From a virus (lineage: Duplodnaviria > Caudoviricetes), in the IMG/VR virus record IMGVR_UViG_3300046318_000318: 64,000 nucleotides of DNA, one strand, 5' to 3'. Positions 38,086 through 63,998 of this stretch are shown one piece after another. The notes beneath the pieces were generated by a model, which saw only the letters and a program-made list of their open reading frames with translations, made no database searches and had not been told where the DNA came from. Each line of letters begins with the position of its first letter. Position 1 is the first letter of the stretch. The translations under genes and the position numbers were made by a program.

Positions 38086-39012
38086 TTATTCTTCCACGTA
38101 CTTGGTTTTAAATCCGGTACAGGTGAACATGTGGTTGATGATCTGTATGGGTTTCGTGTTACCGTAAGTAACCAGATTCCTATCCACGATCTCTTTGATA
38201 TCAGAAGGTTTCTCAGCATCCAAGATGTTCCTTGCCATATGGCGCTGAACAAGAGGGTTACCAGATCTATCCAACATCTCAGCCACAGCTTCCCGACCAC
38301 AATACCCCACAAACAAACGACCCTCAGTCTCACCGATGGTCCTGACCGGTGTGTTGCGATAAGGTCTTGCATGCTTTTCACGACGGTTGACCTGAGCCAA
38401 CAATCCATGCAACTGAAGGTTGCCTGTGCTCACAGCTGTCCAGTCGTCAGCGATCTTTTCCAACAGCATCATGTACAGAGGAGCGATCCTTACATTTCTT
38501 TCCGTAGTCACCATTTCACCAGAATTACCACGATAGGTTACCTTACCGTAGACTGGTTTGTAAGGAGACGCCTCTATCCTTTTGACGATCTCTTTGGATG
38601 AGAGCTGTTTGTCAATAGGCACATAGGCATACGCATGGTTAGAGATGATACTGACCATGTGCTCAGCCTGACTCTCTGGTGTTACCATACTTGCGTAGTA
38701 CATGGCTTGTTTGTCTGAGAACAACTTATAGAAGTCCACGACATACTGATGCACGGCTTGTATCTTTTGGATATCGTGCTTAGCCAGTAACTGTTCTGCT
38801 GTCACAGCTGTGGGTGTCAATCGCTCATATCCAAATTGTTGTCTGACGTGCTGGGTGATGTCCCTCAGCGTAGCACTCATGTGCTGTTCATACAACCTAC
38901 CTAAGTTCATGCGGGAGATAGTAGATGCTGCGTCCATCACCACATCCGCACGATTGCCATTTTCGTCCACTGGCATGTTCTCAGGTTCCTCAGTTTTTAC
39001 AACTACGCCTTT
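38086..39012 (-). CDS. rpoB: Non-virion RNAP beta-like subunit, exon 2 (phiKZ gp73-like; starts KGVVVKTEEPENMPVD)
   Basis: Frame opens right after the intron terminal G at 39013; ADVVMD...SRMNLG, IAPLYMMLLEK and RTIGETEGR beta motifs. Confidence 0.9.
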   Translation of the reverse strand, partial: KGVVVKTEEPENMPVDENGNRADVVMDAASTISRMNLGRLYEQHMSATLRDITQHVRQQFGYERLTPTAVTAEQLLAKHDIQKIQAVHQYVVDFYKLFSDKQAMYYASMVTPESQAEHMVSIISNHAYAYVPIDKQLSSKEIVKRIEASPYKPVYGKVTYRGNSGEMVTTERNVRIAPLYMMLLEKIADDWTAVSTGNLQLHGLLAQVNRREKHARPYRNTPVRTIGETEGRLFVGYCGREAVAEMLDRSGNPLVQRHMARNILDAEKPSDIKEIVDRNLVTYGNTKPIQIINHMFTCTGFKTKYVEE

Positions 39013-40328
39013 CTTATTGTCCAGTAAAGTCGCTCAGCTTCACAGCTTACTCTCTTTACCCGGTGTGCTAAGACACCCGCCTGTACTTTCATACAGGAAC
39101 AGACTATATCTTCATCCTTCCTTTCGGTTAGGATGTCTCCCATTTCGAATCTTGCTAAGATCCTACGCCTTACGGCTAGTCGTTGGCCACACCCCATGTA
39201 AGTATATATGTACATACTTAGTTAGGAGCTTCGGTGCGGATTGCCCATATATCTTTATTAGTTTTACCTTACCTGTGTGATTAGCACAGCCGTTAACTCA
39301 TTTTCATGGTTAAGTTGGTCAATAAAGTTTTGGGGGTTCCCCGGCAATTAGAGAGATTTTTTGTATTTACATTACTGTAAATAGGTGGCAGGATTTTATA
39401 TTTCATTGGTAGTTACCAGACTTATTTCGATGTGTCGATCTAGCTAAGTCTAAAGATATTCTCTGGCCAGGTGGTAAATCCAGTCAGATATCTTAAAATG
39501 TAGTTCTCATATGGGATTTCATGATTATCATCCAAAAGCTCTATGACTTTATTTTGGTCTAGCTTAGTTTGATTTATAAAATCTTGAAAATTCCATACGG
39601 TTTGTTTACGCTCAGTGACATTGTAAACAATTATATCGAAAGTGTTGAACAACGTTTCCTTAAAACCTAAACCGCGAAGTAGTCTTGTTTTAAACTTCTC
39701 ACGGTCTATATTTAGTTGTCTTATCCACTCTTCAATAGGTTGTATTATATCACCGTACTTGACGTTTTGATGGTAGTATCTTACATTCACCATTTGCTCT
39801 CTTGGATTACTCCATTTACAATTAGCTTTGTAATAACCCTTATCGCCGTCTATTCTGTCGAGCGTTGTGTTGTCCGGTCTTGGACCCATATCGTCGTAAA
39901 AGTGCTTGAATGACTTAAGCCAGCTTTCACATATGGTGATCCCGCGTTCACCGTAAAGATGGTATTTTATGTTATTTTTATTAGTGCAACGCTGGATCAT
40001 ATTCTCCCAAGTAGAATATTCCCTGCTTTGCCATAAACCATGCTTTGTTTTATTAGCCTGACGGTAACACCCACAACTTTTATTTGTAGGTCTTTTCAAT
40101 AGAGGTAGACATATATTTTTAATTACGCCGCAATCACACTGGCATTTAAAAATACGCCCGCTCTTACCCATCGGAGCTTCTTCGAGAACTGTTAACATAT
40201 TGAAACGTTGTCCAATATCAATCTTGCTTCTGCTCATTTCATACTCACCTCTTTCTTTTAAATGATTTCAAATCGACACATCTGAAATCTAGGTTGTTGT
40301 TCTACCAATGAACTATAAATTTTTATTT
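39013..40328 (-). mobile_element. Group I intron in the nvRNAP beta gene, carrying an HNH endonuclease
   Basis: 5' exon ends in GGT(U) and intron ends in G; P AATTGCCGGGGAA, Q AATCCGCA, R CCAACGACTA, S AAGATATAGTCT; IGS GCCACC (39384-39389) pairs with exon GGUGGU; splicing restores HGG|KGV. Confidence 0.9.
39440..40237 (-). CDS. Intron-encoded HNH-family homing endonuclease
   Basis: CQCDCG...KSCGC, MIQRC...YGERGITIC..W, TLDRIDGDKGY...NCKW; AT-rich. Confidence 0.88.
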   Translation of the reverse strand: MSRSKIDIGQRFNMLTVLEEAPMGKSGRIFKCQCDCGVIKNICLPLLKRPTNKSCGCYRQANKTKHGLWQSREYSTWENMIQRCTNKNNIKYHLYGERGITICESWLKSFKHFYDDMGPRPDNTTLDRIDGDKGYYKANCKWSNPREQMVNVRYYHQNVKYGDIIQPIEEWIRQLNIDREKFKTRLLRGLGFKETLFNTFDIIVYNVTERKQTVWNFQDFINQTKLDQNKVIELLDDNHEIPYENYILRYLTGFTTWPENIFRLS

Positions 40329-41513
40329 ACCACCATGATTATCGGTTAACTTAAACCCTTCGCATGGCTCTATGGTGTACTCAATCACAAACTGGATTTG
40401 ATATTCGTCAACAGATGTTTTCCGTGATTGGAGTTGCAGTGGTTGTTTAAAGCTACTGCTGTTGTGATTGGTTTGCACCATGGCTTCACAGACAAGCTTG
40501 TCAAACTTAGGTGTAGTCAAGATCTCATTTGTGCCAAACTTTGTTCTGTTGTCCTTGCGAAGAGAAATTTCCAGATCGATCACTTTCTTGTAAAAAGATT
40601 GATTGGCCTCATGGTACCTGTTTAGGTAGTGAGACATCTCCACCGGCATATTCTTAACAGGTGCGTTATTGCGAATGACTTTGACATCCACCACCACTCC
40701 ACCCCCACCTCGTACGTAGACAGCTTCGTCAAACATGTGGTCGACTTCCATCAGATCGATACGGGACATCTCTACAGGCGAAAGAGATGTGTTGAAATCT
40801 CTGAACGCCATGAGAATACCATCTTCACGGATCTTGTCACCAATCTCTGGGAAAGGTTTGACCTCGTTGATGGTACCGTAAAGGTTGAGCGGGAATTGTT
40901 TACTACCGAAGTTGACCACTCGGGTGTCATAGATCTTGAACTTAAGCTTAGGCAGAAAGTCCTTAGAGACCATAATACCGTCCTCAGCCACAGACGGAAT
41001 AGACATCAAAGCGATGTTAGCGTTGATGCCAAACATGAAGTTACCGTTGTCAGAGACAGCTGGCGTGTCCGCAAAGATTGTGTCTTTTTGGATGTAAGCA
41101 CCTGGCTGAAGCTTACCGATGTTCTTCTTGTTAACTTTGTACTTAAAGCCAAAGTTCTGATGGTATTGGGCTTTGTACGGAATGACCAGATAGTCTATCT
41201 GTTTGTTATCTTCACGTTCAAAGAACACATAAGTCTCTGGATTGAAGTTCAAAGACTTGTTACCGATACCTCTTGGGTAGCGATCCATGATGGCGATGAT
41301 GCGGCCATCTTCAGGCATCTTTACGTTAAAGGTATACTTACCGAACTCTTGTTCAAGCCCAGTCTGTACCAGTTTCTCTTGAGCGCCGTCGATCACCAGA
41401 CGCTGACCGATATGTGAAGAGAACATAACTGCTCGTGAGGAGCTGTTATGTGCACAGTAGGCATTCAGACCTTGAATACCTACGAATTCCAGTTTCAGTT
41501 CATTCTTTTGCAT
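40329..41513 (-). CDS. rpoB: Non-virion RNAP beta-like subunit, exon 1 (phiKZ gp71-like)
   Basis: SSSRAVMFSSHIGQ, NANIALMSIP..AEDG, FKLTDNHGG; spliced product about 703 aa. Confidence 0.92.
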
Positions 41514-51452: not shown

Positions 51453-51797
51453 CATAACTACCTCACTCTAGCTTTAACTAAGTTCGCTAAACTTATTGAT
51501 CTTGCTTAAGGATCCTGATACTTTCATATCAGATTAGACTATATCTTCATCTTTCGATGCTCTTCGTTTCCACTCGCTTGAGTGTACTCCCATGTGGGAT
51601 AGTCGTTGACCACACTCCATGTAAGTATATATGTCTATACTTAGTTAGGAGCTTCGGTGCGGATTGCCCAATCCTTGTATCTTTTACCATACCCAGATAG
51701 TTACTCTGGCCACTGCATATATTTCTATCGCAGTTTGGTGCACAAGGCTCTAAGGAGTTTCCCGCAATTAGAAGAGTTTAAACGACGGCAACACTCT
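51453..51797 (-). ncRNA. ORF-less group I intron (345 nt), second intron of beta'-N
   Basis: Follows GGT and ends in G; IGS GCCGUC pairs with exon GACGGU; P AATTGCGGGAAA, Q AATCCGCA, R GTCAACGACTA, S AAGATATAGTCT. Confidence 0.88.
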
Positions 51798-51818
51798 ACC
51801 GTCAAAATCAGCATTTGG
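51798..51818 (-). CDS. rpoC: nvRNAP beta'-N subunit, 21-nt micro-exon 2 (PNADFDG)
   Basis: CCA AAT GCT GAT TTT GAC GGT between the terminal G of intron 1 and the start of intron 2. Confidence 0.88.
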
Positions 51819-53809
51819 CTTATTGTCCAGTAAAGTCGCTCAGCTTCACAGCTTACCCTCTTTACCCGGTGCGCTTACACACCCACCTGTACTTTCATAC
51901 AGGAACAGATCATATCTTCATCCTTATTAAAGGATGCTCTCCGCTTCTTCCCTGCTTAGGGCTTTACTCGGTCGCAACTCCGATGATCGTTGAACTTTAC
52001 GCATGGTTGATAAGAATCAACTTTAGCGTCTTAGCTGCTGATTACCCAATTCTTATATTTTTCAAACTATCACGCTCATCGTTTCCGATCACGTTGTAGT
52101 ATATAAGACTCTAAAGGACTTCCCAGCAATTCAAAGAGATAACTTAGTCAATTACTCAACTAAGTGCCTTATCTCATCATTATTAAAATACAATGTCAAT
52201 CGCCACACACCGCCTATCAATGCTTTTCTTCTAGCTATTGTAGGGATATATTGTCTAGCATACCCAAATTGCTGACTAATATCTATAGGACTTGTTATAA
52301 TCCTAGTTTCGCCAGTTTCAACGTTTTCGATAAAATATCCGTTACCCCTAAAAGATCTTTTATCGAGACATAATTGTTTAAAGTACCTCAGCTCCTTATC
52401 GGTAAGATCTTTAAACTGTCCGTTGAAACTAAATTGCCAACCTTTAATCGGAATGTTCTTTAATCTTTTATTTTTAATAGATAGTTGAACACCCCATGAA
52501 ACACCAGTTATTTTCTCACAAGCTGCCAGCGATTCAAATTTACGTTCTTTGCGTGTGAATATATTTCTAGCAGTAACTGGTATTTTTATTTGTAAATCTT
52601 CTAAGGATGGTTTTTCCTGAGGCCATGGTCTTGCATCTAATTTTCGTTTGAAACATAATCCGTCTGAATAGATTTTAATATCGGAAGATCTAAGTCTGAC
52701 GGACACGGTTAGTTCAGAATATCCAAGTTTCAGAGAGCAATCCCTAGCACTTTTATATTCAGTCACCTCATCCGTGATTATGTTTTTAACAAGTATTGCT
52801 GAACCATACCTGAATTGATCGTACTCATTTTCTAAATTTTCATAATTTTTCCATTCTTTTAATTCAGATAGCCATTGAAACTGCATGTAATTTTCCCAAA
52901 GTTTACAACCGGGTTTTGTTTTTAACCGATGGTAAAGTAAATCATTACTCAAGCCTAATGCAATTGCGCATTGCGTCGGGTTATCATAAATAGTGATTTC
53001 ATTGGTTTTAACATTTCTAGTTATGACGTCTATGGTATACTTTTTCTCATTTTCAAGAATTCTATTTACTTTTTCATCAGATCTATCACAATTCGAATAA
53101 ATGACATTTCCTCTAGGTGTCACCCATTCTAAATTATCTAAGGTGTCAAAGCCAGGTATCTCATTTTTATGATTTACGTACAGCGATTCAACGTTTCTAG
53201 GATAATCTAGCCATGCTAAGCACATAGCTCTGTGTCTGAAAAATTTGTAAGATGTATTCTCATTAAGGGAAACATCAGGAATACCTGAATAGGAATGGTA
53301 ACCATCTCTATCACAAAAAGCTTTTTTATCCACACCAGTTATCAAATTTCTAACTTTTCCTTCCTTTGTTATACCATATCTTGTAAAACCAGGAATATAA
53401 GCATGATCTTTGTGTACTGGATGTGATAAACCAACTGGAAATTTCCAAATCAAGTTGCTAGGATGAGAGTTATTAAAATCACCGTCCTCGAACATCAAGT
53501 GTAATAAATGCACTTGACTTTCATGAACGTGAACGGGCTTAAAAGCCGAAGCTATGATAAACTCTATTGGATATAGACCAGGACCTCTTATCCAATCTAA
53601 GAAAATCAAAGTGCTTCCTGTTTCAGTTGAGATACACTCAATCTGAATGTTCTCTCGCGATATGACATCACCTTCTGAGTTAACAGAATAACGACCGTCA
53701 GACCAGGGTAGCGAAAGATAGTTTTGGGTTTGTAAATATTTACTAAGCATATATCCTTTCTATATAGAAAGGTATGCTAAACGGCGATTGACAATAATGA
53801 TAAGAATTA
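51819..53809 (-). mobile_element. Group I intron (1991 nt), first intron of beta'-N, carrying an HNH endonuclease
   Basis: Starts TAA after GCT and ends ...GGACAATAAG; P AATTGCTGGGAA, Q AATCAGCAG, R GTTCAACGATCA, S AAGATATGATCT. Confidence 0.88.
52152..53750 (-). CDS. Intron-encoded homing endonuclease: two HNH-like modules plus four NUMOD1/IENR-like repeats
   Basis: FRHRAMCLAW...VNHKNE.....LDNLEW; upstream degenerate EDGDFNNSHPSNLIW; repeated N..T.E...Y.S...C...LG units; AT-rich. Confidence 0.85.
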   Translation of the reverse strand: MLSKYLQTQNYLSLPWSDGRYSVNSEGDVISRENIQIECISTETGSTLIFLDWIRGPGLYPIEFIIASAFKPVHVHESQVHLLHLMFEDGDFNNSHPSNLIWKFPVGLSHPVHKDHAYIPGFTRYGITKEGKVRNLITGVDKKAFCDRDGYHSYSGIPDVSLNENTSYKFFRHRAMCLAWLDYPRNVESLYVNHKNEIPGFDTLDNLEWVTPRGNVIYSNCDRSDEKVNRILENEKKYTIDVITRNVKTNEITIYDNPTQCAIALGLSNDLLYHRLKTKPGCKLWENYMQFQWLSELKEWKNYENLENEYDQFRYGSAILVKNIITDEVTEYKSARDCSLKLGYSELTVSVRLRSSDIKIYSDGLCFKRKLDARPWPQEKPSLEDLQIKIPVTARNIFTRKERKFESLAACEKITGVSWGVQLSIKNKRLKNIPIKGWQFSFNGQFKDLTDKELRYFKQLCLDKRSFRGNGYFIENVETGETRIITSPIDISQQFGYARQYIPTIARRKALIGGVWRLTLYFNNDEIRHLVE

Positions 53810-63358: not shown

Positions 63359-63682
63359 TCAGTGTTCCACAGTATTAGGCAACTGTGGTGTTATGAGAAA
63401 GTTGAAGGGATCCATGAGCTTCATCATATCTGCTTGGAAATCCAGAAGTTCGTCGATCATACGGCATTGGAAGCTTGTGGCGTCCTTAGGTGTTCTCATA
63501 CCACCGTTAATCACATCGTTAGCCATGTTAATGGTGTCTGAGATGTATTTAGATAGATCGACTGGATCTAGATTGTTTGCTATTTGATAGATTTGAAGGT
63601 TTCTCAATGTGGATCGAATAAAGATTTCTATGTACCTTTTATTCAGTTTGGTGAGACTATCTTGGTGTCTAGCTTTGGACAT
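63359..63682 (-). CDS. Hypothetical protein
   Basis: 107 aa ORF with phage-like composition. Confidence 0.7.
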   Translation of the reverse strand: MSKARHQDSLTKLNKRYIEIFIRSTLRNLQIYQIANNLDPVDLSKYISDTINMANDVINGGMRTPKDATSFQCRMIDELLDFQADMMKLMDPFNFLITPQLPNTVEH

Positions 63683-63722
63683 GTCTGTGATAGGGATTAG
63701 TTAATGTTGCTACCACTCTATG

Positions 63723-63998
63723 TCAGAAACCTTTGGTTGGGTAAAGGTTCCTTAAAATTGCATCGGCAAAAGCAGAGCCTTTTGTACTGGTCCCAGTCAT
63801 CCCCCCCGATTGCGAATCAAAATTGTTAGACAGAGAATAATCCACAATCATGCCAGCACCTACGATGGCAGATTTCATAGTCTCATACTGAGTGCGCTTA
63901 GCCAACAAAGTCGACAACGCATTGAAATTAATTACGGTAGCTTGTTCGATCTGGGGTGTAGCCTCTGTCTCAAACCAAGCATCAAGATCTTTATTCAA
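63723..63998 (-). CDS. Hypothetical protein (may start beyond the window)
   Basis: 91 aa ORF at the window edge. Confidence 0.6.
   Translation of the reverse strand: MNKDLDAWFETEATPQIEQATVINFNALSTLLAKRTQYETMKSAIVGAGMIVDYSLSNNFDSQSGGMTGTSTKGSAFADAILRNLYPTKGF

Follow-up and report, generated by a model that had tools for sequence, protein, structure and literature searches.

Group I introns of phage T4 in td, nrdB and sunY are said to recombine through short conserved cores, as Hall, Liu and Shub in 1989 and Bryk and Belfort in 1990 reportedly found, the latter under the title 'Spontaneous shuffling of domains between introns of phage T4'. The T4 chimeras reportedly came from laboratory crosses under selection and were mostly crossovers that deleted or rearranged the DNA between introns. 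The locus described here resembles T4 in that non-allelic, co-resident phage group I introns appear to have given chimeric ribozymes with halves from different introns. It differs from T4 in that the exchanges are natural, short, non-crossover patches with gene order intact, and in that at least 8 introns of a jumbo phage are concerned, seven of which lie in essential polymerase genes. Staphylococcus phage Twort, as reported by Landthaler and Shub in 1999, is said to contain several related group I introns, three of them in one gene. Here, too, one phage genome has many related self-splicing introns, some packed in one gene, although the host genes and the phage group differ.

Mosaic introns are described also in yeast mitochondria, for the omega (21S rRNA) group I introns and their endonuclease genes (Wu & Hao 2014, PMC4059233). 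As in that system, we deal with natural introns of mixed origin, with statistical support for recombination and with uncoupled histories of introns and endonucleases. On the other hand, omega introns became mosaic by allelic conversion at one site after interspecies transfer, whereas different sites of one genome are involved here. Similar in its setting is the HNH-bearing group I intron in gp210 of the nucleus-forming jumbo phage PhiPA3 (Birkholz et al. 2024, PMC11620839), which shares with the present case the kind of host gene, the combination of a group I ribozyme with an HNH endonuclease, and insertion in a catalytic motif. Introns of the PhiPA3 type have been described as single introns and studied for endonuclease-mediated competition, and neither a multi-intron family nor module exchange is reported in that paper (PMC11620839). 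Thus, the process itself is already known from phage T4 and yeast mitochondria, and the picture of intron evolution is unchanged by what follows.

The window, that is the whole stretch of DNA analysed, makes up the final 63 kb of an IMG/VR virus contig of 164 kb (~60% complete) from a freshwater phiKZ-like jumbo phage, and its minus strand carries all genes discussed. When both gene regions were searched by megablast for close isolated-phage relatives, only 41-42-nt matches were obtained. The nearest isolate is Burkholderia phage FLC9 with ~40% protein identity, so FLC9 was used solely for fixing exon junctions. Three group I matches in the window exceed the gathering score (50) of the Rfam covariance model RF00028: intron A (39407->39080, 81.0 bits), intron B (52196->51886, 68.7 bits) and intron C (51807->51515, 83.7 bits), all on the minus strand. 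Model positions 1-253 are fully matched, in keeping with their membership as group I introns.

PHROG scans and tblastn with FLC9 place A, B and C in phiKZ-type RNA polymerase subunit genes (Table 1). A interrupts the beta gene, and B and C flank the PNADFDG motif of a beta'-like subunit. B contains an HNH ORF of 532 aa (phrog_59 match at 8.5e-15). On the whole contig there are seven Rfam-scored group I introns, each in an RNA polymerase subunit gene, where they interrupt catalytic motifs, and an eighth, H, brings the related introns to at least 8. H was missed at the Rfam gathering score because a 267-aa GIY-YIG-like ORF is inserted after its P9. Introns F and G stand in tandem in the other polymerase's beta' gene (G000:C1:19332-20087, outside the window), apparently leaving a 6-nt exon, TTCGAT, inside ADFDGD.

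Table 1 Features of the intron loci discussed in the text (positions in the window unless a genome or contig coordinate is given)
Feature	Coordinates	Strand	Details
Beta exon 1	40329..41513	-	phrog_3295 profile positions 6-404; tblastn with FLC9
Beta exon 2	38086..39012	-	phrog_3295 profile positions 416-691; Pfam RNA_pol_Rpb2_6; FLC9
Intron A	39013..40328	-	1316 nt; 5' splice site after GGTGGT, HNH ORF, ribozyme, terminal G at 39013
HNH endonuclease ORF of A	39440..40237	-	265 aa; phrog_374 E=2.7e-55; predicted homing endonuclease
Internal guide sequence of A, GCCACC	39384..39389	-	direct reading
P5 extension module of A, long type	39253..39327	-	~81% to beta-site intron of phage G002
C-like block of A	39177..39247	-	P5'/P4' 3' strands, P6-P6a hairpin, J6/7, P7 5' strand
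P7.1-P7.2, P3', P8 block of A	39113..39176	-	resembles neither B nor C
B-like block of A	39013..39119	-	P8 3' strand, J8/7-P7', P9, P9.1, P9.2, 3' end
Exact match of A to intron G, 57 nt	39048..39104	-	P7'-P9-P9.1 + P9.2 5' strand
Exact match of A to intron B, 38 nt	39013..39050	-	P9.2 hairpin to 3' splice site
Intron B (beta' intron 1)	51819..53809	-	1991 nt, HNH ORF 52152-53750, tail 51819-51925
Micro-exon	51798..51818	-	21 nt, encodes PNADFDG, between introns B and C
Intron C (beta' intron 2)	51453..51797	-	ORF-less, 345 nt; block 51600-51670 matches A
Intron D	genome ~15008->14631	-	virion polymerase gene
Intron H	G000:C1:84500-85760	-	~15 kb before window start; counterpart of G1_6778

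In the alignment with FLC9 beta, A splits a beta-like motif between HGG and KGV. Its 3' end reads ...AATAAG at 39013, and the exons joined across A read ...DNHGG/KGVVV against ...FGGKGVIC in FLC9, restoring the conserved frame. The HNH ORF, which gave zero hits in a Pfam search, occupies the P1 loop, downstream of the 5' splice site and ahead of the internal guide sequence. As judged by complementarity only, the guide sequence (39389-39384) would pair with the exon end GGUGGU (40334-40329) in 6 pairs including the splice-site U.G. The P1 of C is likewise predicted from complementarity only (GACGGU/GCCGUC), and the P1 pairings of B, D, E, F and G are short (4-5 pairs in a by-eye reading).

P9, P9.1 and P9.2 are each backed by compensatory base changes among 16 introns, which indicates that the shared modules are real RNA structure. 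We infer that the chimeric ribozyme of A still splices. The exon-exon joint across 40329/39012 was absent from RNA-library contigs of four freshwater runs, which cover the exons and the ribozyme in part. In RNA-library contigs of two runs, 39391 or 39361 was joined back to 39059, in one case with 47 intervening letters. These backward joints could represent tandem introns of a relative or circular intron RNA; in the tandem reading, a tail is followed by an A-like 5' part.

The ribozyme of A changes its closest relative along its length. Its last 107 nt (39013-39119) match B (51819-51925) at 100 of 107 ungapped positions, with mismatches at 39051, 39066, 39070, 39072, 39079, 39104 and 39105, so that the last 38 nt (39013-39050) are identical, and the identity stops right at the 3' splice site, with the final nucleotide of the intron. 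Farther upstream in the intron, 39177-39247 matches C (51600-51670) at 67 of 71 positions. The remaining pairings in the two segments are only 62-68% identical: from P5' to P7, 44/71 for A-B and 45/71 for B-C; from J8/7 to the end, 71/104 for A-C and 68/104 for B-C. Both near matches had been described in a sequence-only reading of this DNA, for the last ~107 nt with beta' intron 1 and for the Q-to-R segment with beta' intron 2, and both were recovered with ends within 1-2 nt; the 38 identical nucleotides include the 34-nt string which that reading had given as an identical 3' end.

A three-way alignment contains 52 sites at which A equals C and not B, and 61 at which A equals B and not C, and these sites are strongly segregated. 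To the left of a breakpoint near 39100-39104, there are 18 B-type and 50 C-type sites, and to the right 43 and 2. The maximum chi2 of 52 was reached in none of 20,000 permutations (p<5e-5). The switch in similarity is thus beyond chance.

The similarity is neither uniform along A nor limited to universal core nucleotides. The C-like block spans the entire P6-P6a hairpin with its loop, and the B-like block the P9 loop, P9.1, P9.2 and the 3' end. The hairpins in these blocks are peripheral elements that are divergent in other family members.

Exact-pattern searches with both modules found two related virus contigs, G001 (5 introns) and G002 (9 introns). Exon 2 of the G002 beta gene shows 78% protein identity to that of this phage, and exon DNA among these phages is only ~75% identical. 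Twenty introns from the three related phages were cut at shared core sequences into six blocks, which were typed at 80% identity; the G002 intron L028, a tRNA-gene candidate, was left out of this family analysis. In L028 (G002 contig 63576-63824), a group I match is followed by an apparent tRNA T-arm and CCA end, as for an intron in a tRNA gene. In the G002 beta' gene, four group I introns follow one another (L020, L022, L025 and L026; contig 79059-80515), and three of the four split the NADFDG codons, leaving micro-exons of 12 nt (PNAD) and 9 nt (FDG).

Block types combine freely. For types a and e of the P5 extension and types a and c of P6, all four combinations are present, a four-gamete pattern of modules. 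The modules seen comprise at least 4 types of P5 extension, 4 of P6 and 4 of tail, and several tail types coexist within one genome. The P6 of B is 44% identical to its site counterpart vs 95% to co-resident D. The domain-wise phylogenies proposed in the earlier reading are mutually incompatible: each of four block alignments rejects the maximum-likelihood (ML) trees of the others (delta lnL 34-347, AU p 4e-4 to 1e-75). These alignments run to only ~45-100 columns, and each favours the ML tree built from it, yet the size of the conflict far exceeds that bias. The block-wise discordance thus has statistical support. The 5' block (guide sequence, P2 and P3; 39345-39389 in A) alone is never shared between sites and clusters strictly by site, as expected because it must match the exon.

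The same data bear on the view that no recombination took place, and that the introns were duplicated from one ancestor and diverged under uneven constraint, with a conserved core and a free periphery. Strongly conserved core stretches, common to all family members, fit uneven constraint, and the identity of A and B at 39113-39119 is partly just the shared P8 stem. But the near-identical blocks are peripheral hairpins, with A grouping with C in one block and with B in the next, and both the full set of module-type combinations and the mutually rejecting block trees contradict it. Descent without recombination is hence scarcely credible, and we return to recombination between introns.

The parents of A are not simply B and C. 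The sequence-only reading had described A as a mosaic of the two beta' introns; the mosaicism stands, but this parentage is too narrow. The P9-P9.1 part of its tail agrees fully with G, not with B. Taken together, the exact matches to G (57 nt, 39104-39048) and B (38 nt, 39050-39013) tile the tail without mismatch over 92 nt. As candidate donors of the tail of A, B, D and G stand equally near overall, with identities of 93-94% for B and D and 88% for G; this tail type (type I) is common to four co-resident introns, and B, D and G among them share it at 88-96%, as do introns of other phages. P9 and the tail of A are 100% and 94% identical to co-resident introns. The P7.1-P8 block fits neither B nor C, which goes against a two-parent scheme; overall it is closest to intron G and G1_6778 (78-80%).

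Comparison with other phages makes C an unlikely recent donor of the P6 block. The C-like module type is found also in G2_91769, G2_80209 and L048, and the same block occurs in two beta-site introns as well as in C's counterpart. Of these, G2_91769, the beta-site intron of G002, resembles A by 81% in the P5 extension, 89% in the P6 block, 76% in P9 and 70% in the tail; its tail, in which the small P9.2 hairpin is missing, is matched at ~91% by a different intron on the same genome. L048, a beta-site intron on a metagenome contig, has a P6 block 94% identical to that of A and 98% to that of C, and a P8 identical to that of A; its P9 is of the F type, its P9.1 of the B type, and its tail is distinct. 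Because the P6 block is present in beta-site introns of two other phages, it is probably native, or old, at the beta site rather than newly acquired from C. The P5-extension/P6 domain and P8 of A together look native there by the same comparison, and the P6 type looks equally old at the C site. Separately, within-genome homogenisation of P6 between A and C was considered (A-C 91%, the G002 pair identical, 89% between counterparts) and rejected because it rests on three adjacent loop positions, which is too thin.

As for the tail, both the G000 and G002 lineages carry its type at the B, D and G sites, where it is of long standing; at the beta site only this phage has it. The ~100-nt 3' tail of A was most likely copied from co-resident introns, and A would then be the recipient of one or two recent conversion tracts, a direction that follows from parsimony over only three beta-site introns whose tails are all mutually different. 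Since the genomes compared are all metagenome assemblies that are only 43-60% complete, closer donors may have been missed. A metagenome scan for more beta-site introns gave L048 as the single further close relative. The insertion point of A lies 3 nt, or one codon, downstream of that used by the beta-site introns of G002 (L024) and L048 (HGG/KGV vs HG/GKGV), and A alone among the three bears an endonuclease ORF; strict orthology of the beta-site introns is uncertain for these two reasons. A may have been partially replaced during a separate invasion of its site.

These features also bear on another course, allelic exchange between co-infecting phages, in which A took its tail from a same-site beta intron that was already of type I, and B, C, D and G were not donors. 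Allelic diversity exists, as the beta-site introns of the three phages carry three tails and three P9 types, the endonuclease gene found only in A and the 3-nt offset are compatible with a separate invasion, and yeast mitochondrial mosaic omega introns arose by allelic exchange (PMC4059233). However, the viral and metagenome collections searched yielded no type I tail in any other beta-site intron, the tail of A shares exact runs of 57 nt with co-resident G and of 38 nt with B, and the ~75% exon DNA identity between the phages counts against allelic exchange. Moreover, a tract in intron D demonstrates exchange between different sites of one genome. Even with an allelic step, the presence of the same module types at different sites means that ectopic exchange was needed at some point regardless. 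We consider the purely allelic course improbable, and copying from co-resident introns remains our reading.

A chimera could also be made in the computer, if the assembler switched between repeated intron segments. This is a metagenome assembly, and exact intron repeats of 38-57 nt can confuse short-read assemblers, but A has correct beta exons on both sides, and its tail is unique as a whole, with 7 differences from B and 7 from D. An RNA-library contig (X1 record 3) covers 39093-39243 without difference, bridging the B-like and C-like blocks, and similar mosaics are seen in three other independent assemblies. There is very little chance, then, that A is an assembly artefact, and we treat it as a genuine mosaic intron.

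The tract in D gives one event in which donor and recipient can be told apart. D and its counterpart in G001 show 5 differences outside a 57-column patch in the P5 extension and 19 inside. In D, the P5 extension lies at genome 14847-14948. Across the patch, D is identical to co-resident H, 70 kb away, at 101 of 102 positions, and the tract in D is the only other significant match of H in the genome. The counterparts of D in G001 and G002 have a different hairpin at the patch, similar to each other, and the counterpart of H in G001 carries the tract of H. Because the tract is absent from D's counterparts and present in H's counterpart, H is the donor and D the recipient. By these comparisons, a conversion from H to D took place in this genome lineage, over a 102-nt tract whose ends fall in the conserved P4 and P4'/P6 sequences.

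Ribozyme and endonuclease histories are uncoupled. No similarity was detectable between the endonuclease of A and those of B, D and E, and the endonucleases of B, D and E are only 20-25% identical among themselves, whereas A, B and D agree at 93-94% in their ribozyme tails; G, which has no ORF, has the tail too. The independence from endonuclease ORFs claimed in the earlier reading is borne out in this way, with unrelated endonucleases in A and B beside tails that are 93% identical. Its claim of recombination or gene conversion among co-resident introns is well supported by the block trees and by the clean conversion tract.

Could a common tail have been kept by selection instead, with P9-P9.2 held alike for one common factor, either a splicing helper or an endonuclease? 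It is true that the tail forms a structure and has been conserved in many introns and in three phages, and that almost every family member has the 3' end motif CTGGACAAnAAG. Yet selection maintains structure but not exact identity over 57 nt and 38 nt including loop nucleotides, the counterparts of the tail-sharing sites in a related phage have a different tail, and the multiple tail types in one genome argue against a common factor. Common-factor selection is very improbable as the cause of the shared tail. Very probably, by the sequence comparisons above, A is explained by ectopic gene conversion between introns resident in the same genome, irrespective of their endonuclease genes.

At the DNA level, we infer the following course. 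Introns of the family would trade ~40-100-nt tracts by non-reciprocal homologous recombination (ectopic gene conversion), primed by 10-20-nt core sequences that are common to all members. Tracts would be bounded at J3/4-P4, P4', J6/7-P7, J8/7-P7', P9.1 and the 3' end. Because tracts are bounded by shared cores, they would coincide with structural modules, namely the P5 extension, P6-P6a, P8, P9 and the P9.1-P9.2 tail. Each intron would retain its site-specific 5' part (guide sequence, P2 and P3) and its own endonuclease gene, or none. A crossover between introns in the same orientation would remove the essential genes that lie between them, which should leave only patch-like conversions to survive. 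The opportunity for exchange may come from endonuclease cuts, from replication template switching or from co-infection. Exchange between co-infecting phages could take the place of exchange inside one genome.

A further, rather doubtful extension is that the introns form a recombining population within a single genome. Conversion of short patches, if frequent, would then keep the ribozymes of C, F and G, which are endonuclease-less and non-mobile, functional, with healthy modules overwriting decayed ones. If true, it would explain the persistence of many ORF-less introns in catalytic codons of essential polymerase genes, and the combinations seen would be a natural catalogue of interchangeable and mutually compatible ribozyme modules.

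The locus offers a well-resolved natural example in which ribozyme domains appear to move as units between introns of one phage genome, with one event of identifiable donor, recipient and tract (H to D, 102 nt). Its setting is the RNA polymerase genes of a jumbo phage of the nucleus-forming type, where intron endonucleases are known in phage competition. Since modules are exchanged, introns of these phages cannot count as single evolutionary units, and intron phylogenies, homing histories and 'orthology' by sequence mislead unless done block by block. The module combinations observed are also ready-made chimeras for probing the modular compatibility of group I ribozymes.

Presence of whole introns varies among these phages, too. 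Intron E (an HNH ORF with a ribozyme, ~1.8 kb; G000:C1:12103-13872) is apparently absent from the sister strain G001, whose DNA (L013:2633-2782) aligns on both sides of E, a presence/absence polymorphism.
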